From positions 31 through 64,030 of the forward strand of contig DASZRG010000039.1 in the NCBI GenBank assembly GCA_035549295.1: a stretch of 64,000 nucleotides of DNA. The letters are read 5' to 3'. Positions within the stretch are counted from its first letter, which is position 1. Each line of letters begins with the position of its first letter. Shown here piece by piece: positions 33,837 through 47,843 of this stretch. A program made the translations under genes and the position numbers. Below the pieces are notes generated by a model, which searched no databases, had not been told where the DNA came from, and saw only the letters and a list, made by a program, of their open reading frames with translations. The DNA comes from Patescibacteria group bacterium. GTDB taxonomy: Bacteria > Patescibacteriota > Microgenomatia > Levybacterales > GWA1-39-11.

Positions 33837-34043
33837 ACTTTTCTCACCTTGTCAATACTATGAGTTACTTTTGTAGGCTATTTTGTTATCTTATAATCTG
33901 CAATTAATCTGAGTTATATTGGGTGATATGAGGTGATGTTGAGTAGTATTTGTCGAAAGTATCACAAGATAGAGATTGCGAATAATGAATAAAGAAGAAT
34001 GAATAATGAAAATGCGATAACTCGTTAACACGCCCACTAGCTA

Positions 34044-34110
34044 TTAGCGTTTAGCAGTTAGCTTTTAGTTAAGAATACCTACCAACCCCCAAGCGCCAAC
34101 CGCCAACCCC
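34044..34110. repeat. same element, copy B (divergent promoter region between the Xis-like gene and typA)
   Basis: ttagcgtttagcagttagcttttagttaagaatacctaccaacccccaagcgccaaccgccaacccc. Confidence 0.55.
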
Positions 34111-36002: not shown

Positions 36003-36293
36003 AGTATTAAGCAATTACTTTTTAGTGATTAAGACTAAAGGAATTAGTGATTAAGATAATTGACTAATCACTTTAATCTTTTAATCCTAATCACTAGTAG
36101 AGACTTCTAGTATCTCGCATTCTCTTTATTAATTTAACCTAGTACATAAGGACCTAGTACTTAGTGCGCAGTTAAGTACAATAATTAACTACGAACTATG
36201 TTCTATTTCCTGCGTACTAGAGAGTTGCTCTTGATACTTTTGATACCCTTCACTATACTCTCCTTATACTTATCCGAGAGGAGGTGATATTAG

Positions 36294-37446: not shown

Positions 37447-37674
37447 AGAATGTATCACGAGTTTAATACTACAAATAAGCAAAGTTCAATTAAGCAAATT
37501 AATCTATAAATGAATCAATGGATAAATTTATATTTAGAATTTTATACATTTAACAATTTAGAATTCATTTGAACTTTATCATTTGCATATTTGATTACTA
37601 AGATTGGCAGTGTTACCCATCTTAACTTTCTCCCCCGCACCTTTTCCAAAACCCTAGTATCTAATATCTAGTTT

Positions 37675-37902
37675 CTAGTCCCGCGTCTTACGTTTGTCGA
37701 CCTCTCCTTTGAGTATCTTAGTTACCCGTTCAAAATCTTCTTTTCTCACGTTCAATCTAAATCTCGCCGGCACACCATATTTCTGGATAGGAACACCTTC
37801 GAAATTATCCTCGCTTATGGACGTTTCAACTCCTAACTTTTTCAAAACTTCTTGAGCCCTTTCCGCCTCTATCCTCGTCCTAAATATCCGTATCCACACC
37901 AT
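37675..37902 (-). CDS. small hypothetical protein (DUF2007-like)
   Basis: 75-aa ORF ERAQEVLKKLGVETSI...FRLNVRKEDFERVTKIL. Weak similarity by memory. Confidence 0.3.
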   Translation of the reverse strand: MVWIRIFRTRIEAERAQEVLKKLGVETSISEDNFEGVPIQKYGVPARFRLNVRKEDFERVTKILKGEVDKRKTRD

Positions 37903-37991: not shown

Positions 37992-39212
37992 ATGCTGGTG
38001 AGACGTATCAAAAACATCGCACATGGTGTTGAAGCGGAACTCGCAAATGCAATCTACGGATTTGGAAGAAAACAAATTCCAACAATTGGTGTCACCGGCA
38101 CAGATGGTAAGACGACTACAACTAGCCTTATATTTCATATTTTAAAAACGGCAGGATTTAATCCCGCTATGGTAACAACAGTCGGAGCACAAATTGGCGA
38201 CACAACATATGAAACAGGACTTCACACTACAACACCGTCACCGTTTGCTTTACAGAAATATATCAAGAAAGCATCGGATGCTAACTGTGACTATCTAGTT
38301 TTGGAAGTTACATCTCACTCGCTTGACCAGAATAGAACTCGAGGCGTTGACTTCAAAATAGGAGTGCTCACCAATATCACACATGAACATCTAGATTACC
38401 ACGGAACTTACGAAAAATATGCTAGAACAAAAGGGAGACTATTCAAGCGATCTGATATTTCACTTATTAACAAAGACGATGACTCATATAAATTGCTTAA
38501 GCCACTCCTCTCAAACAGAAATGTACTCACATACTCCATAAAAGGTCCCGCTGATTATACGAGTAAGTCAGTGGGGATTAAATTTCCAGGTGAGTACGAT
38601 TTTAATTATGAAAATTTTTTAGCAGCCGTCTCGACTGCCGAGATTTTGGGGATAAAAAAAGAAATGGTACAGAAAGCTTTAGAGACATTTAAATTTCCCA
38701 AAGGCAGACAAGAAATTGTTTATGACCGTGATTTTCGGGTGATTATAGACTTTGCCCACACCCCAAATTCATTTGAACGGATTTTGCCTACGTTAAAGAA
38801 AAATACGAAAGGAAGACTAATTCATATTTTTGGCGCTGCGAGCAAGAGAGACGCTACCAAGCGTCCTCTCATGGGCCATGCATCAGCTTCCCATTCAGAT
38901 ATCATTATTTTGACAGCAGAAGATAGTCGAAACGAAAAAGTTCTTGATATTAACACCCAAATCAAACTCGGCATAACGGGATTTGAAGAGATTGATACCG
39001 AAGAGGCAATTCAGAAGAACAAAAAATTGCTTTTTGAAATATCAGATCGCGCGCGGGCGATTGAGTTTGCCGTTTCGATTGCCCAAACAGGTGACACAGT
39101 TGCTATTACTGGAAAAGGGCATGAACAATCCATGAATCTAGGACACGGTGAAATCCCCTGGAGCGACCACGAAGCCGTTGAAAAAGCAATCAAATTAAAG
39201 TTAACGAGTTAA
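37992..39212 (+). CDS. Mur ligase family protein, MurE-like but lacking the N-terminal domain
   Basis: The P-loop IGVTGTDGKTTTTSLI sits at residue ~33. THEHLDYHGTYEKYARTKGRLF matches the MurE catalytic region and DFAHTP the C-terminal domain. Confidence 0.55.
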   Translation: MLVRRIKNIAHGVEAELANAIYGFGRKQIPTIGVTGTDGKTTTTSLIFHILKTAGFNPAMVTTVGAQIGDTTYETGLHTTTPSPFALQKYIKKASDANCDYLVLEVTSHSLDQNRTRGVDFKIGVLTNITHEHLDYHGTYEKYARTKGRLFKRSDISLINKDDDSYKLLKPLLSNRNVLTYSIKGPADYTSKSVGIKFPGEYDFNYENFLAAVSTAEILGIKKEMVQKALETFKFPKGRQEIVYDRDFRVIIDFAHTPNSFERILPTLKKNTKGRLIHIFGAASKRDATKRPLMGHASASHSDIIILTAEDSRNEKVLDINTQIKLGITGFEEIDTEEAIQKNKKLLFEISDRARAIEFAVSIAQTGDTVAITGKGHEQSMNLGHGEIPWSDHEAVEKAIKLKLTS

Positions 39213-39371
39213 CGCGTTTGCGTGTTAACGAGTTCAATATTTAAAAATTCCAAATTTCTAATAGCTAGTTACTAATCAAGTTTTAATAAATTAACAAATT
39301 ATCAATTTCTATTTTTTAGAAATTAAAAATTAGTAATTAGAAATTCCAACGATGCTCTGATACCCTATGAC

Positions 39372-40388
39372 CTATACCTTCCTTATCTTCCGTCTCAATT
39401 TCTCAAACCAATAATCCACAAGGTATCTCTTACCCTCTACTACCAAGTCTTGTGCGGGCAAATACGCAACGTCTTGTCCTCCAAATCCCCTCTTAAAGAG
39501 AGAGAGTCCTGCGAACCTGTGGTCCTTTGAGCCTTCAGGTGAGACTCCCCAAAAGTTATATCGACTCATTCCTCTTTTTTTTGCCTCGCATATTGCCTCC
39601 CACTGGAGAAGGTATGCTCCAGGGTATCTGCGTCCATCCTCAGTACTTGCCCCATAGTGATATACGGCTTCTTGCCCATAAAAAATAATGAAGGCTTGAG
39701 CTAGTATTTTTCCTTCAAATTTTGCAGTATAAAGGATTGCTTTTTCGTCTTTAATAAAGATATCGAATTGGTTCAAAAGAAATTTCTTAGAAAATGGGAC
39801 AAATTTTTGACGATTTGCAGTTTCAATTTGTAGATCGTAAAACTTTTCAATATTTTTTTCTCCATTTTTCTCAATTTTTATTTCTAACTTTTCTGCTTTT
39901 TTGACCTCGTATCGAGTTGCTTTTCGCATATTAGCGAGTAGCTCTTCTTCGCTTTTTGTTATATCAAGCTGACGAGTAAGCTCAGCATGAAGATACATCG
40001 GAGCAGGCTTAAATCCCAATTTATTAAACGTTACTTGTGAAAAATTATCATCCACGAGTTGCGGACGACATCTTACAAAAACGCATGAATTATCACTTGC
40101 GATTTTTCTAAGTTCCTCGGCAAACTTTTTTAACAAATCTTTGTCTTTCCAATCAACGATGGGGCCTCCAGGAACAACTAGAAATTTACCACGTTTTGAA
40201 GTTTCAATATACGCAAACATCAGACCAAGAAGTTTTTGATTTTCAAAAAAACCAACTCTAAATATTTTTCGAGATAGAGAGGCCTGGAAGTCTCCCCAAA
40301 GCCAACTTTGTAAAAAATTAGCCTCAGTGTGATCGTCCAAAAACCCCTCCCAAGTATTTTTCTCAGATATCTCCCTTGATTCAACCAT
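39372..40388 (-). CDS. FemAB-family peptidoglycan interpeptide-bridge aminoacyltransferase
   Basis: 338 aa. FLQSWLWGDF...AVYHYGASTEDGRRYPGAYLLQWEAICEAKKRG...FKRGFGG is FemX/FemAB-like. Confidence 0.65.
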   Translation of the reverse strand: MVESREISEKNTWEGFLDDHTEANFLQSWLWGDFQASLSRKIFRVGFFENQKLLGLMFAYIETSKRGKFLVVPGGPIVDWKDKDLLKKFAEELRKIASDNSCVFVRCRPQLVDDNFSQVTFNKLGFKPAPMYLHAELTRQLDITKSEEELLANMRKATRYEVKKAEKLEIKIEKNGEKNIEKFYDLQIETANRQKFVPFSKKFLLNQFDIFIKDEKAILYTAKFEGKILAQAFIIFYGQEAVYHYGASTEDGRRYPGAYLLQWEAICEAKKRGMSRYNFWGVSPEGSKDHRFAGLSLFKRGFGGQDVAYLPAQDLVVEGKRYLVDYWFEKLRRKIRKV

Positions 40389-40395
40389 ATTTTGG

Positions 40396-40466
40396 TAGTG
40401 TCATTCTGAACTTGTTTCAGAATCTCATGTCTGAAACCCCGGATCAAGCCCGGGGTGACAAAAAGT
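40396..40466. repeat. dispersed ~65-bp hairpin element, copy 1 (gtcattctgaa..ttcagaatctcat..cccggatcaagcccggg..tgaca); supplies the stop codon and last 4 codons (SPRA*) of the DegT gene
   Basis: Near-identical to copy 2 at 41617-41685. It has nested inverted repeats. In gene-sense RNA it forms CCCCGGGCUUGAUCCGGGG followed by UUU, which is terminator-like. Confidence 0.6.
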
Positions 40467-41610
40467 TATTAATAATTGTGCAGATACGCATCGCATCCTT
40501 TTCCCGCACATTAATATGCGTGGGCAGGTTGACTATTATTTTCGAGTCGGCAACGGCGTTTGGACATTCTGGTGCAACATCAACATACCAAATATCCTCA
40601 AGATAAATCCCCTGCTCTTTTAGTTTTTTTAGGAGTTTGCTTCTCTGTTCGACAAAAATTGGGAACCGCAAGTTTGATGACAGCTTAACTGCTTCCAAAG
40701 TTTTTTGCTTGTCAAACATAAACATGGAGTCAGAAAGCTCCTCGACATATATCGAAGCAATTTTTCTTCTATGCGATAACTGCTCTGATAGCGTCTTAAA
40801 CTGAAATACCGCAAGTGATGCATTCCATGAAGGCAACGAATAATACTCATACAGAGATTCATCCATGATATTTGATAAAAATCCCATTTTCTTTAACAAA
40901 AAATGATAAGCCTTACCAAGCCCCACACCATACATTTCCCTAATTTTGTAAGTAAAACTAGGATAAAACCTCTCCCTTAATCCGCCTGCATTTTTTTGAT
41001 ATTTGATATTTGATATTTGATATTTGATATTCCTAACAACTACCGCTCCTCCCGATACCGCATCAATTATCTTGTCTTGGCTAAAAGAAAGGACTACAAA
41101 ATCGCCAACAGTCCCCGCCTCTTTTCCATTTTTATACTTCGCGCCAATACAATGAGCAAGATCCTCTATCAAGATCAGCTTATGCTCTTTACATATTTTT
41201 TGAATTTCCTCAATATTACATGGGTATCCAAGCGTATTCTGCACAACAACCGCCTTTATTTTTTTATTCATCCTTAAAGACTTCAGGAGACCTTCAGGTG
41301 TGAAATTTAAACCACCGGTCTCTTCTAGATCGATGCAAACAGGCTCAGCTCCCGCGGTTCTAATAGCATTAAAAACCGCAACGCATGTAAAGCCATTTAT
41401 CGCAATTTCAGCATCTTCGGGTAAATCGAGCGCTTTGATTGTTGCCGTTAAAGCCTCTCGCCCCTTGTAAAACAAAGTGGCTTTCCCGCCATATTTTTCC
41501 TCAAGAAGATTTGTAAGCTTGTTTTTATCAGAAGCAGAACCAACGGTCGCAAGGGACTTTAGAACATATGATAAATTGTAATTTGATCCTAACGAATTAA
41601 ATATCGCCAT
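40444..41610 (-). CDS. DegT/DnrJ/EryC1/StrS-family PLP-dependent aminotransferase
   Basis: GFTCVAVFNAIRTAGAEPVCIDLEE...LAHCIGAKYKNGKEAG...DFVVLSFSQDKII. It contains an internal 7-bp tandem repeat and a repeat-derived C-terminus. Confidence 0.75.
   Translation of the reverse strand: MAIFNSLGSNYNLSYVLKSLATVGSASDKNKLTNLLEEKYGGKATLFYKGREALTATIKALDLPEDAEIAINGFTCVAVFNAIRTAGAEPVCIDLEETGGLNFTPEGLLKSLRMNKKIKAVVVQNTLGYPCNIEEIQKICKEHKLILIEDLAHCIGAKYKNGKEAGTVGDFVVLSFSQDKIIDAVSGGAVVVRNIKYQISNIKYQKNAGGLRERFYPSFTYKIREMYGVGLGKAYHFLLKKMGFLSNIMDESLYEYYSLPSWNASLAVFQFKTLSEQLSHRRKIASIYVEELSDSMFMFDKQKTLEAVKLSSNLRFPIFVEQRSKLLKKLKEQGIYLEDIWYVDVAPECPNAVADSKIIVNLPTHINVREKDAMRICTIINNFLSPRA
40998..41031. repeat. heptanucleotide tandem repeat (gatattt) x~5 inside the DegT coding sequence
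   Basis: The DNA reads tttttttGATATTTGATATTTGATATTTGATATTTGATATTcc. It encodes NIKYQISNIKYQ on the minus strand. The 7-bp unit is not a multiple of 3. Confidence 0.7.
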
Positions 41611-41616
41611 ATTTTA

Positions 41617-41685
41617 GATGTCATTCTGAATTTATTTCAGAATCTCATTATCGAGATCCCGGATCAAGTCCGGGATGACAGAAAA
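41617..41685. repeat. dispersed ~65-bp hairpin element, copy 2; supplies the stop codon and last 4 codons (SSRT*) of the alpha/beta hydrolase gene
   Basis: atgtcattctgaatttatttcagaatctcattatcgagatcccggatcaagtccgggatgacag, in the same orientation as copy 1. Confidence 0.6.
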
Positions 41686-42398
41686 CCATTTACTATCTCA
41701 AAAACTTCTTTTGTATTTGTAAATTGAGGAGAATGTTTAGCATTGTCAATAACGAATAGTTTAGACCCGCTAATTAGCTTATTTATTTTAATTCCTCCTG
41801 AAAGAGGAGTAAGCTTATCTTGCTTTCCCCATATTATTAAAGTAGGTGACTGAATTTTTTCGTAAAATTGACCACAATCTATTGAAATCAGATTTAACAT
41901 TGTCATTTTCACTATCGGATTAGCTTTTTCATAATCGTGTTCACCGGCCAGTCTGTAAACCAATTTGCGCAAAATTGGAGCCTGCGTAAACTTCTTGCCA
42001 GATTTAGCCAATATTTTAAAGAAGTTCTTTCTGAATGTTGTAGCTAAATCTTTTCTAAGAATTCCTGCCGCACCAATAAATATTATCTTCTCAACTTTTG
42101 CGGGATATTTAGAAGCAAAAGCTGAAGCAATTCTTGCTCCATTTGAGTGTGCAAGTAGAATGATTTTCTTTTCGCTCTTTGTTTCGCTAGTGAGCCATTC
42201 AACATAATCGTTAATTTCCCAAACAGTATCAAGTGGCGCTGTTAGACCTGGAATCTTGAGCATTTCATAATCCGTTTTATTTTTATCGAGCAGGTCCAGA
42301 AATGGTTTCCATTTTTCTGTTGAGTAAGACCACCCATGCAGTATATATACTTTGATATTTTTGCCTATAGTCCCCATTGTTTTCTTCTTATTTCCCAA
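41664..42398 (-). CDS. alpha/beta hydrolase fold protein
   Basis: GxSxG nucleophile elbow ILLAHSNGARIA. 244 aa. Confidence 0.6.
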   Translation of the reverse strand: MGNKKKTMGTIGKNIKVYILHGWSYSTEKWKPFLDLLDKNKTDYEMLKIPGLTAPLDTVWEINDYVEWLTSETKSEKKIILLAHSNGARIASAFASKYPAKVEKIIFIGAAGILRKDLATTFRKNFFKILAKSGKKFTQAPILRKLVYRLAGEHDYEKANPIVKMTMLNLISIDCGQFYEKIQSPTLIIWGKQDKLTPLSGGIKINKLISGSKLFVIDNAKHSPQFTNTKEVFEIVNGFLSSRT

Positions 42399-43630
42399 AT
42401 CTTTTCGCGACGAGATAGCTTTGACGCTTCCTGCTTGTTTTTAAGGATATTTTCAATAATACCCTCCATAAATCGAGCTCCTTTGAAAAGTATAGTTTCT
42501 CCACCTTTTATATTTACCGTCAGGTAATCTAAGACATCCTTAGGTGATACAAATGAAACAACATTTTTCCCATAGTGGTTTTCGAGAATTGAAAAACCAT
42601 GCTTTTTAATTCTAGGACCTAGCAAAATTACCTTTTCGTAATCTGACTTAACGACAAGTTTTGCCAATTTCTCATGCTCCTCTTTTTCTTCCTCTCCTTG
42701 CTCAAGCATGTCTCCAATAACAGCCCATTTGTTATCTGCCTTTATTAGATTGAACATGTTGATGATCTCAGTTGCCGAGGAAAAGCTTGAATTGTAGCAA
42801 CTATCGACTATCGTTGTATTTTTTACACCTTCAAATATGCTGCTTCGACCTGGCGGAATATCAAATTTGTCAAACTTATCATCAAACGAAAAACCAAGAT
42901 AATTTGTTAATTCCAATATTGCCGATATGGAGTATGAAATTGCCCTGGGAAGTAAAAATCTAAATTTGTATATATCATTTTTAAGCTGATATTCTGTTCC
43001 ACCCGTCGAAACCTTGTAGCTTTTTAGACTTTTTTCTGTGACTTTAATTACATCTGCTTTACTTCTAATAAGTTGCGACATTATTAAATCTGAATCAGAA
43101 TTAATAATTACAAGCTTTGATGTATTTTCTAGGAAATATCCGTATTCGTACGCAATAGCTTCTTCAACATTTTTAAACTTACCAGATGAAACTAAATAAT
43201 CAAAATTCATGCTGTGCGTTCTAGATGAGGATAGCCAAATTGTCACTTCGGGTTTTAAGAATTCTGAAAGAAATATTCCTTCGTTAGGTCTATCACAATC
43301 TGCTTCCACAACATATATTTTCTGTCTCGGAACACTCGAAAAAGCTTTAATTGGTGCGCTCAAAAAAATATTAATCCATTCTAACTTCTGTAAGGTTTCA
43401 CGATGGATTCCAAGAATATTAAATGGGATACCAAATGAGCTGTTCGCATGATGAGAATAAGTAGCGTTTTCCCTCAACTGCGCAATAGCAAGATTCATAG
43501 TTGTCGTTTTACCTGCTGATCCAGTAATAACAACGACTCGCGGCTTCCACCGTGCGAGTTTTATCTTCGCAAAGAAGCGAAAATACCCCGCGATCGGAAA
43601 ATACAATAATTTCTTTATTGATCCCAACAT
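42365..43630 (-). CDS. Mur ligase family protein, MurF-like
   Basis: P-loop VVVITGSAGKTTTMNLAIAQL. The C-terminal DSCYNSSFSSATEIINMF resembles MurF DDSYNAN. Confidence 0.5.
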   Translation of the reverse strand: MLGSIKKLLYFPIAGYFRFFAKIKLARWKPRVVVITGSAGKTTTMNLAIAQLRENATYSHHANSSFGIPFNILGIHRETLQKLEWINIFLSAPIKAFSSVPRQKIYVVEADCDRPNEGIFLSEFLKPEVTIWLSSSRTHSMNFDYLVSSGKFKNVEEAIAYEYGYFLENTSKLVIINSDSDLIMSQLIRSKADVIKVTEKSLKSYKVSTGGTEYQLKNDIYKFRFLLPRAISYSISAILELTNYLGFSFDDKFDKFDIPPGRSSIFEGVKNTTIVDSCYNSSFSSATEIINMFNLIKADNKWAVIGDMLEQGEEEKEEHEKLAKLVVKSDYEKVILLGPRIKKHGFSILENHYGKNVVSFVSPKDVLDYLTVNIKGGETILFKGARFMEGIIENILKNKQEASKLSRREKIWEIRRKQWGL

Positions 43631-44073
43631 TTGAATTTATTATACCAAGAACTACTAAAACAATGTCATTGCGAGCGAGCAAACGAACGCAGTGAAGTAC
43701 AGCGAAGAGAAGCAATCTCAGGTTATTCGATTTTCGGTTACGATGCCAGTATCGTTAGCAGGTCTACGTTAAACGTATGACTTAACCGATACGGGCCTCG
43801 CTACCTTACACCACAACCAATTAAAATTAGCCCGTAATACACGTGATACCCGTTATGCACTTGATACTCTTAATCACTTATTCTTTTACTGGTATACCGG
43901 TATATAAGTAATAAATGTGACCCAGCCTACAAATATATTTTAATACTAGTATACATGTATACCTGTGGCAATTAGCTCATGATACTCTTGATACTCGTGG
44001 TACCCTTGATACTCTTGGTACTTCTAAACTCCCTCTTGATTTACTCCCCGCGCTTCAACTATATTAGATACTT

Positions 44074-46300: not shown

Positions 46301-47791
46301 GTGGGAATCCAGAGTAAATTTTTCCAATATCTAACTTTGAATCAGAATTGGTATTGCTGTAAAATCGCACTTATGGCAACTTATGAATCCGAAACTCAGG
46401 TAACCGCCGAACGAACAGCCGAACAAGACGTAAAGTTTAATGTTGTTCGTAATCTAAAATTTGGCAGTTTACTTCCACTCCCCAACGGGAAACCATTCGG
46501 TGGGGAGACTGTCACTGCATACAGATATCAACAAGGCGCCAGAACGGAATACCTCATCGTTTTTGGTCCACTTAGTGGGTATCAATTATACAAGAGACTA
46601 AATGACGTAGCACGCGTAAAAGACGAGTTTGATGGTGTAAGAGCCGATTTCAGTGGAATTCTTTCAAGTGCAGAACTTTGGAAGCGACACAATGCTGACA
46701 TGCCAGAAGCGTGGGCAGAATATGCGTCCTCAATTCAGCGTCAAAATGATGTAATGCAAACATTCAAACCTAGCGGGCTGCCTATTATACCCCACCAAGC
46801 ATATATGCAATTGGAGAGAGCCAGGAACTCTTACTCAGCACTTGCGGAACACCAATCACAAGCTGACAACACAGTCGATAAAGCTTACAACCAAGCAACT
46901 AGAATGCTTTCTGGAGATATGCCTGTAGATATTCAATTTATCTCCCACTTTCTTCAAATTAGTAGCAGCGACATTGGAATGCGAGGGGTTAGTAGGGGGG
47001 ATTTTACCAGATTAGTAAATGGGTTTGGATCACCTAAAATTAGAGAACAATTCCTTAATCGTTTCAAGAAGGTAGTTGCAGAAAAGTCGAGGGACGAGAA
47101 TGGTGATTTGGATAAAACTAAATTAAGAAGTTACGCAGAACAAACGACCACAACACCCAAAGGCCTAATTAGGAAAAAAATTGACGACAAATATTTCTTG
47201 TATCCTACACACCTCGAACCATATTTAAATTCCTGGCATGTTCAGCAAATATCGGGTGTACAACTTAATGAGAATGGGGAATTCGTTATTCCACCTGATG
47301 CCAAAGAGAAAGTAGATGCAGAAATCAAAAGATTAGACGGAGATATTTTAAGAAAGCGTTCAATAATACCCATAATTCGCTTTGCAGAAACAGATCAGGG
47401 AGTTTCGGGTTTTGTGTTTAGTCATTCTGAAGCAAGTACGCCCCTGCCTTCATCTGTTCTAAAAGACATTGATAGCTCTACTGCCCGAGAAGCTTTGGAT
47501 ACAGAAGAATTTCACGAAGGCTGGCTATCAGGCGCAGTAGGAAATTTACTACTCATAGGTAGTCATCCCAAAATTAAGGAAATTAATGACTCTTGGAGCA
47601 GAATTTGGCAGAGAACTATGATTAGACGATCAGAAGCGGCTGGGCTTGATTCTACACTCCACGAACCACTGAATATTAATGGGCCTGTTCAAGTAGGTCT
47701 TATAGCAACCGTTGCACTCGCAAGATATCCCCAACACTTCAACCACTTTAAAGAAGCAGTCAAGAATCAGTTTGGAAGAATTAGAGATTAG
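46301..47791 (+). CDS. large hypothetical protein with no recognisable domain
   Basis: 496-aa ORF. The real start may be the internal Met near 46373 (MATYESE). It ends 53 nt from the 3' end of the tRNA-Leu. Confidence 0.4.
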   Translation: MGIQSKFFQYLTLNQNWYCCKIALMATYESETQVTAERTAEQDVKFNVVRNLKFGSLLPLPNGKPFGGETVTAYRYQQGARTEYLIVFGPLSGYQLYKRLNDVARVKDEFDGVRADFSGILSSAELWKRHNADMPEAWAEYASSIQRQNDVMQTFKPSGLPIIPHQAYMQLERARNSYSALAEHQSQADNTVDKAYNQATRMLSGDMPVDIQFISHFLQISSSDIGMRGVSRGDFTRLVNGFGSPKIREQFLNRFKKVVAEKSRDENGDLDKTKLRSYAEQTTTTPKGLIRKKIDDKYFLYPTHLEPYLNSWHVQQISGVQLNENGEFVIPPDAKEKVDAEIKRLDGDILRKRSIIPIIRFAETDQGVSGFVFSHSEASTPLPSSVLKDIDSSTAREALDTEEFHEGWLSGAVGNLLLIGSHPKIKEINDSWSRIWQRTMIRRSEAAGLDSTLHEPLNINGPVQVGLIATVALARYPQHFNHFKEAVKNQFGRIRD

Positions 47792-47843
47792 CTCGTGATA
47801 CACTTGGTACCCTTGATACTCGTGATGCTTTTGACTAACTCGG

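Follow-up and report, generated by a model that had tools for sequence, protein, structure and literature searches.

The subject of this study is a perfect heptanucleotide array in a window of 64,000 nucleotides (nt) from a Patescibacteria group bacterium of the Levybacterales (GenBank assembly GCA_035549295.1, contig DASZRG010000039.1, positions 31 to 64,030 of the forward strand). The array has the coding-strand unit AATATCA in 5.3 copies (37 nt, 40995..41031). It lies on the minus strand in a DegT/DnrJ/EryC1-family pyridoxal phosphate (PLP) aminotransferase-like gene at 40444..41610, which encodes 388 amino acids (aa) and, with five units, is intact (ON). An earlier sequence-only reading had proposed that the repeat is a phase-variation switch. 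We found perfect heptamer arrays at the same site in eight other species, every one of them in frame, and we lean towards the view that this is a heptanucleotide microsatellite which is still live, located at a hot spot where the structure is permissive, and held ON by purifying selection.

The DegT-like gene and its heptanucleotide array

The 388-aa protein matches PF01041 over residues 49-380 (E=4e-38, 131.9 bits against a gathering cut-off of 19.8), and the tract lies inside its minus-strand open reading frame (ORF), in agreement with the sequence-only reading, which had placed the repeat within a DegT coding sequence. Lys180, in the motif SFSQDK, is invariant among the 32 homologues aligned and corresponds to the PLP lysine, in SFNGNK, of 7b0m. 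The AlphaFold2 (AF2) model has a predicted local distance difference test (pLDDT) score of 89.3 and a predicted template modelling (pTM) score of 0.90. Its top Foldseek matches are DegT-family structures (probability 1.00, TM 0.67-0.75), and the model has the architecture of a fold-type I aminotransferase. The best scores against the NCBIfam equivalogs (PseC, LegC, WecE, ArnB and DesI) are 66-123 bits, far under the cut-offs of 375-650, so the protein falls outside these characterised equivalogs. The closest homologues of the protein are from Levybacteria, and an identical protein is annotated in the Patescibacteria metagenome-assembled genome GCA_964570355.1 (NCBI).

Tandem Repeats Finder (TRF) reported the tract at 40995-41031 with period 7, 5.3 copies, 100% matches and a score of 74, the top score of the window. 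On the plus strand, positions 40991-41031 read as a run of seven T followed by four GATATTT units and a final GATATT. The repeat first described, GATATTT x5 at 40998-41031, has the letters given for it and is the GATATTT-phased part of the 37-nt tract. On the coding strand the tract and its edges run in codons from AGG AAT ATC to CAA AAA AAT. The array encodes N-I-K-Y-Q-I-S-N-I-K-Y-Q, preceded by R and followed by K-N, and the translation across the tract contains RNIKYQISNIKYQKN.

Directly 3' of the array in the gene is an A7 run (T7 on the plus strand, 40991..40997), which overlaps the last partial unit and forms a second, weaker slippery tract. The poly-T7 that was said to precede the repeat directly is therefore real, but it shares the first three bases of the maximal tract. 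Runs of this type are commonplace, since the window contains 50 of at least seven nucleotides (35 of T and 15 of A), and we rejected it as a special feature.

The array is not expected by chance. For three-unit arrays with at most two mismatches, the expectation from shuffled windows is 0.01 per window, and three overlapping matches were observed. In 595 kb comprising the window and related sequence, 10 perfect period-7 arrays of at least three copies were observed against 0.1 expected under an order-3 Markov model.

The tract occupies the hypervariable linker between the two domains (codons 193-209, minus strand, 40984..41034), which is predicted to be a coil and is bounded by the strand GGA(L/V)V(V/I)R and the motif (K/R)(D/E)R(L/F)YP. 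In the 32-sequence alignment, the stretch between SGGALV(V/I)RN(K)KY and (K/R)DR(L/F)YP is the only hypervariable, indel-rich part of the protein. The model (pLDDT 89) places it as a coil between a strand at residues 188-192 and a helix at residues 210-227. The window protein has 17 aa between RN and RER, a linker length that falls inside the range of its orthologues.

Heptamers of lower quality are also present in the window. Degenerate heptamer arrays (75-85% match) lie in intergenic positions at 552-622, 33980-34108, 37654-37679 and 39316-39345, and TRF found eight period-7 arrays against 1.5 expected, so the heptamer propensity extends beyond the DegT gene. No perfect heptamer array was found in the remaining 58 kb of the window.

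Consequences of unit number for the reading frame

The gene was rebuilt in silico with 0 to 9 heptamer units. Two, five and eight units gave proteins of 381, 388 and 395 aa, and all other counts stopped at aa 201-226. Gain or loss of one or two units thus truncates the product, as had been argued from a unit length that is not a multiple of three. The frame of the C-terminal domain has no ATG, GTG or TTG ahead of Met226, and Met226 lies past the invariant residues Y216 and R224 of the (K/R)(D/E)RxYP...KIR segment. In view of this lack of start codons, we rejected a restart of the C-terminal domain in the OFF states, of the kind used by the split genes described below. Because of the early stop and the absence of a restart codon before Met226, an out-of-frame allele would yield the N-terminal domain only, and such truncated products probably lose function. 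The tract has a latent capacity for switching the gene on and off; adaptive use of that capacity for phase variation is unproven.

Heptamer arrays at related loci

We first compared 80 orthologous loci from GTDB species genomes (81 genes with the window) and then extended the sample to 182 loci (904 kb), nearly all of them within this one gene cluster. Loci are cited by their L numbers. Eight other species have perfect heptamer arrays at the same linker, with 4.1-5.6 copies of various units. The first 80 loci gave AAAATTC x4.9 (L017), AATCAAA x4.4 (L022) and TTTCCAA x4.1 (L040, from the complete genome OY970292.1). Further sampling gave AATTCAG x4.6 (L096/L099), ATCAAAG x5.3 (L153 and L179), and AAATTTC x5.6 (L180/L181) and x4.9 (L182). 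With the window included, perfect heptamer arrays are found in the linker of nine species and nowhere else in the DegT gene. No other repeat with a unit of 2-12 nt, at least three copies and at least 16 nt was found anywhere in the 81 DegT genes.

Traces of older arrays are also present. Decayed remnants were found at the linker in L032 and L071, and that of L032 is a decayed copy of the L040 array. In the L022-type group, 13 of the 120 homologues have a 7-aa periodic signature in the linker, and any other offset occurs in three at most. For the window protein, the 120 nearest homologues were compared, and the query alone has the signature. The sequence-only reading had allowed for the repeat being absent elsewhere and the encoded segment being structurally conserved. 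Neither is the case: eight other species have arrays, and the segment is the least conserved in the protein.

In the 904 kb, the perfect repeats with units of 5-12 nt and at least three copies were 23 heptamer arrays, three pentamers at chance level and nothing else; perfect arrays of unit 6 or 8-12 were absent. One array was counted twice, in L180 and L181, so 22 are distinct. Nine are in the DegT linker, four in a loop of the MurF-like protein after MGPR..KYTYP, four at the N-terminus of the hydrolase just before ILHGW (for these, a start codon downstream of the array is a possible alternative), one in a loop of the hydrolase and four in non-coding DNA. Thus, 18 of the 22 distinct arrays are coding. 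Apart from the linker, heptamer arrays of the cluster are located at L071 1971-1997, 2247-2278 and 2959-3001, L081 2454-2479, L103 818-842, L104 811-844, L115 179-211, L126 766-790, L153 398-429 and L180 2085-2116. Some genomes (L071, L153 and L180) have two to four arrays within 3 kb.

Three of these loci have further peculiarities. In L071, which lies on the 894-kb contig CAWGXL010000011.1, AAGTATT x6.1 abuts the DegT start codon, and three arrays and a remnant lie within about 1 kb. L127 1-110 is a TAACTAA x15.7 array at a contig end, non-coding and upstream of a gene. The DegT orthologue of L153 (1501-2850) has 450 aa, about 35 of them in an additional insertion within the C-terminal domain, and its C-terminal tail holds TCAAAAA x2.7, which encodes a peptide similar to that of its linker array.

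Frame and copy number of the arrays

All 18 coding arrays are in frame; only the ON state was seen. Five of them, internal arrays in the MurF-like and hydrolase genes, are outside the selection of loci, and the probability that all five would be in frame is about 0.004 under random frames. The coding arrays are 25-39 nt long (3.6-5.6 units), and none belongs to the next in-frame class, whereas non-coding arrays reach 15.7 units.

Copy number did not vary within species. The L099-type protein occurs in six variants, one to three residues apart, on at least 21 contigs from JGI (C687J/Ga02095xx) and ENA samples, with one repeat peptide throughout. The clusters of L153, L104, L103 and L126 are likewise uniform in copy number; the L126 hydrolase is represented by nine contigs. 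An all-against-all megablast of the loci gave no near-identical pair with differing unit number, and the arrays of L096/L099, L115/L116 and L180/L181 are identical. Among the loci examined, no orthologue split by a frameshift at an array was found. We also searched for OFF alleles with the N-terminal 200 aa of the protein, and no truncated heptamer allele turned up; the truncated matches were a stable split-gene clade, fragments at contig ends, or chimeric contigs without heptamers (L095, L177 and L178).

These results bear on the proposal of a contingency-locus switch in two directions. A coding tract with a unit that is not a multiple of three and rapid truncation in the OFF frames support it, but the in-frame state of all 18 coding arrays, their invariant copy number and the lack of any OFF allele among the sequences searched speak against it. 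Likewise, the comparison of orthologues that had been suggested finds the heptamer at the same site in eight other species, but with a copy number that is invariant within species and across one species pair.

In L096, a short JGI contig, the DegT gene contains a tandem duplication of about 70 nt (at about 800-900), which breaks the frame downstream of an intact heptamer array. The 99.8%-identical L099 has no such duplication, which may be a real variant or may have arisen in assembly.

Array dynamics between species

L153, L179 and L180 come from related species whose DegT proteins are 71-78% identical. L153 and L179 have the same 37-nt DegT array, yet 31% of the codons for identical residues differ elsewhere; the proteins of the two species with equal copy number are 76.5% identical. 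The DegT-site unit of L180 differs from that of L179. In the MurF-like gene, L153 has AAGTCGA x4.6 and L180 has AAGTCAA x4.6, so that G and A are exchanged at the same position in all four units, with flanks that are 85% identical. Replacement can be complete: L022 and P0214 are 89.7% identical, and their linkers are unrelated.

The preserved purity, the concerted change of units, the rapid replacement and the decay in L032 together suggest repeated contraction and expansion, and the arrays are probably mutationally live. The concerted evolution of units indicates slippage on evolutionary time scales only. Building and homogenising an array in steps of 7 nt would pass through out-of-frame intermediates, which would call for appreciable rates of slippage or for tolerance of transient nulls.

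Gene fission at the linker

The search with the N-terminal 200 aa identified a clade of Patescibacteria in which the DegT-like gene is split into two ORFs exactly at the linker. The N-terminal ORF has 183-198 aa and the C-terminal ORF 156-190 aa, in different frames. The junction is an ATGA overlap in L082 (2501-3657), a Shine-Dalgarno sequence with ATG in L091 (2501-3638) and a TTG in L093 (2501-3599). One split form is identical in 16 contigs, nine of which were read, and this identity indicates stable gene fission, not a transient OFF state. Since the gene can be split there, the linker is dispensable as a covalent connection. At its linker, the DegT-like protein thus tolerates inserted or replaced sequence and even fission of its gene. 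The two-ORF split of this sister clade may itself go back to frameshifting at the linker.

In three further loci (L095 at about 2582, L177 at about 640 and L178 at about 1380), the match to the DegT gene ends just past the linker, and the contigs continue with sequence that is unrelated or inverted; up to aa 194, L095 has 100% identity with L044. These assembly breakpoints could reflect strain heterogeneity at the linker.

Gene neighbourhood

The DegT-like gene had been described as standalone. Instead, it belongs to a conserved cluster. Immediately downstream on the same strand is a FemAB/FemX-like gene (39372..40388), and immediately upstream is an alpha/beta-hydrolase gene (41664..42398, minus strand), followed by a MurF-like Mur ligase gene (42365..43630, minus strand). 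All three are conserved neighbours. The N-terminus of the hydrolase is the second heptamer hot spot in other genomes, and the loop of the MurF-like protein near aa 350 is the third. The murE gene (37992..39212, plus strand), whose product scores above the TIGR01085 cut-off, is convergent with the FemX-like gene. Many related contigs repeat the order MurD-like, MurF-like, hydrolase, DegT-like and FemAB. Together, the neighbours of the gene (MurE, the MurF-like ligase, the FemX-like protein and the hydrolase) suggest a role in the cell wall. The idea that the DegT-like protein is a surface-glycan-modifying enzyme is not shown by these data: the cluster is of Mur type, and the protein matches no characterised DegT equivalog.

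The protein shares PF01041, the PLP lysine and the fold (TM about 0.7) with the DegT/DnrJ/EryC1/StrS sugar aminotransferases such as PseC, ArnB, perosamine synthase and WbpE. The DegT-like family differs from these characterised enzymes in its conserved N-terminus IFNSLGSNY, its hypervariable linker, its conserved synteny with Mur ligases and FemX, and the presence of one clade with two ORFs.

Discussion

The observations suggest the following model. Slipped-strand mispairing would make the tract in the coil that joins the PLP-binding domain to the C-terminal domain, which is probably the one place in the DegT-like enzyme that tolerates almost any sequence. Heptamers would be the characteristic long repeat class of these genomes, and the linker, the MurF-like loop and the hydrolase N-terminus would be recurrent hot spots where arrays arise, homogenise by slippage and later decay. 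At the present locus five units keep the frame, so that the full enzyme is made, and a change of one or two units would cost the C-terminal domain. Because such a change truncates the protein and no canonical restart codon precedes Met226, null variants would have to arise at an elevated, reversible rate. Slippage is probably still going on in this population.

Tetranucleotide contingency loci of Haemophilus influenzae, such as lic and mod, also have a repeat of non-triplet unit length in an envelope-related coding sequence and undergo reversible frameshifting by slippage. As a rule, those tracts are far longer, and strains differ in them. The arrays described here differ in unit length, and strain polymorphism of that kind was not seen in them. 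Among the closest known counterparts is neuO of Escherichia coli K1, the O-acetyltransferase gene of the CUS-3 prophage, which is phase-variable through the coding heptanucleotide AAGACTC, with 3-53 units, 65.6% OFF genotypes among 64 genomes and minority lengths that are measurable in culture (PMC13001214). The two systems share a 7-nt unit in the ORF of a cell-envelope-related enzyme, a full-length product in one of three copy-number classes, and strand slippage as the mechanism. They differ in position, since the neuO repeat is in the 5' coding region and the DegT-like array is in an inter-domain linker. They also differ in state, because about two thirds of neuO genomes are OFF whereas the present arrays have 3.6-5.6 units, are all ON and are invariant within species. 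Consensus genomes that are in frame and arrays that are short fit purifying selection on the ON state rather than a free-running switch like neuO.

The work of Mrazek et al. (2007) on long simple sequence repeats (SSRs), as summarised in PMC4679880, reports the heptanucleotide as the commonest class for most of the prokaryotic genomes that were surveyed, and a slippage bias related to the polymerase is proposed as a possible cause. The preference for 7 nt is therefore not new in itself, and it is matched here: among units of 6-12 nt, only heptamers reach three or more perfect copies. The non-coding TAACTAA x15.7 array of L127 resembles the intergenic TAACTGA direct repeats of Beggiatoaceae and cyanobacteria that PMC4679880 also covers. 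The long SSRs that it covers are mostly intergenic, often have stops in all frames, and in coding DNA have predominantly units that are multiples of three (PMC4679880). In contrast, 18 of our 22 distinct arrays are coding and stop-free and recur at three specific positions in proteins.

Several points weigh against holding by purifying selection as the full account. Arrays of non-triplet units that stay pure across about 15% nucleotide divergence are the outcome expected of selection for mutability, so that pure mutation pressure may be an incomplete explanation. Because full-length similarity was used to rank the DegT loci, the sample is biased against OFF alleles. The window protein is a singleton at 90% identity, as are those of L017 and L022, so length variants are not visible there, and JGI metagenomes, which were scanned with exact flanks and a variable gap for copy-number variants at the window locus, gave no match. 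Since the sampling is nearly all from one cluster, the hot spots may be specific to the cluster or genome-wide.

A genuine contingency locus is the alternative that we take most seriously, though we think it unlikely. The array would be kept by second-order selection, and frameshifting of DegT would create subpopulations that differ in cell-wall chemistry. By extension, the hydrolase and MurF-like genes of other genomes would switch likewise, and the benefit could be evasion of phages or, for an episymbiont, attachment to a host. Such selection would account for the non-triplet unit, given that triplet units, which are better tolerated in coding sequence, are absent, and for perfectly pure arrays with concerted evolution across species. 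The three recurrent hot spots in one cell-envelope cluster, with two to four arrays within 3 kb in L071, L153 and L180, the quick termination of the OFF frames, and the growth of four- to five-unit arrays from short seeds by 7-nt steps, which would cross out-of-frame intermediates, also favour it. On the other hand, a switch of the neuO type would be expected to show what neuO shows, and here 18 of 18 coding arrays are ON and short. The same copy number is found on at least 21 contigs and in six protein variants of one species, and again in two species with 76.5% identical proteins. The search aimed at N-terminal fragments yielded no truncated heptamer allele, and the cluster resembles core synthesis of murein peptide.

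The opposite possibility, which we regard as improbable, is that the tract is inert: a seed of two units, AATATCAAATATCAA, coding for the conserved motif RN-K-Y-Q, would have expanded once, in frame and by 21 nt (three units), making the tolerant linker 7 aa longer, and the tract would now mutate at an ordinary rate. Such a relic agrees with the sizes of the arrays, as every coding array is in the class of 3.6-5.6 copies, which equals a seed plus three units, and none is in that of 6.6-8.6. It also agrees with the invariance of copy number in all same-species comparisons and with a window linker of ordinary length. However, a two-unit seed presumably cannot misalign by three units in one slippage event, and repeated homogenisation is needed to explain both the substitutions shared by all units and a pure array that is identical although its flanks diverge by about 15%. 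Nine independent or persisting arrays at one site of 60 nt likewise call for a recurrent process.

Conservation of the array for its own sequence, either as a cis-acting nucleic-acid element (for example, sites for a heptamer-binding protein) or as a functional peptide with 7-aa periodicity, is very improbable. The perfectly conserved sequence and copy number of the L153 and L179 arrays between divergent flanks would suit it, and so would a common A-rich TC(A/G)AA-like core of the units on the coding strand. But units vary freely between close relatives at one site (AAATTTC against ATCAAAG, and AATTTCA-type against AAATGGA-type), about 90-95% of the orthologues have no array at all, and the linker is wholly missing from the split-gene clade. 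We rejected the similarity of units across sites as a sign of a sequence-specific element, since A-rich composition, together with the requirement that no frame of the three contain a stop, accounts for most of the shared core; 14 of 14 coding arrays examined conform to that requirement. An assembly or sequencing artefact is scarcely credible. Nothing specific speaks for it beyond the source, a metagenome-assembled genome, whereas a read is longer than the tract, the conserved gene that holds the tract in frame is intact, and the NCBI record has the tract too; analogous arrays occur in independent assemblies from NCBI, ENA, JGI and Logan.

A live microsatellite that is held ON is thus the reading to which we return. 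Heptamer arrays that recur at three fixed protein positions and evolve in concert offer a clean natural cycle of microsatellite birth, homogenisation and decay, in essential-looking genes, and this holds even if the arrays do not switch. Heptanucleotide SSRs in coding sequence are known, and so is phase variation mediated by SSRs; what is new here is the phylum Patescibacteria. A full-text literature search found no report of simple-sequence repeats or repeat-mediated phase variation in Patescibacteria, and its sole match in the phylum was a 9-mer, in-frame hypervariable protein repeat. The papers on heptanucleotide phase variation that it retrieved all concern other bacteria. The inter-domain location, the three hot spots in one murein-peptide cluster, the concerted evolution and the gene fission at the same site are unusual.

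A wider hypothesis, which we consider rather doubtful, is that Patescibacteria of the Microgenomates type keep live heptamers at the MurF-like loop, the hydrolase N-terminus and the DegT-like linker as reversible frameshift switches that diversify cell-wall chemistry. If this were true, contingency loci would be described here for the first time in the Candidate Phyla Radiation. To the Patescibacteria, which are ultrasmall, uncultured and for the most part episymbiotic, switching arrays would give a mechanism for varying cell-wall chemistry at the population level.

Other repeats in the window

A second class of tandem repeat was seen in the window. Arrays of a 9-bp unit with the consensus CTC(T/G)TGATA are located in intergenic DNA at 651-677, 36228-36245, 43976-44041 and 47792-47827. 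Three of them sit 30-300 bp upstream of plus-strand ORFs that start at 745, 36544 and 44074, and the fourth starts directly after the stop of the ORF at 46301-47791. With at most one mismatch, the motif occurs 62 times in the window against 27 expected, and none of 100 shuffles reached 62. These arrays may be an array of regulator sites or a leader element.

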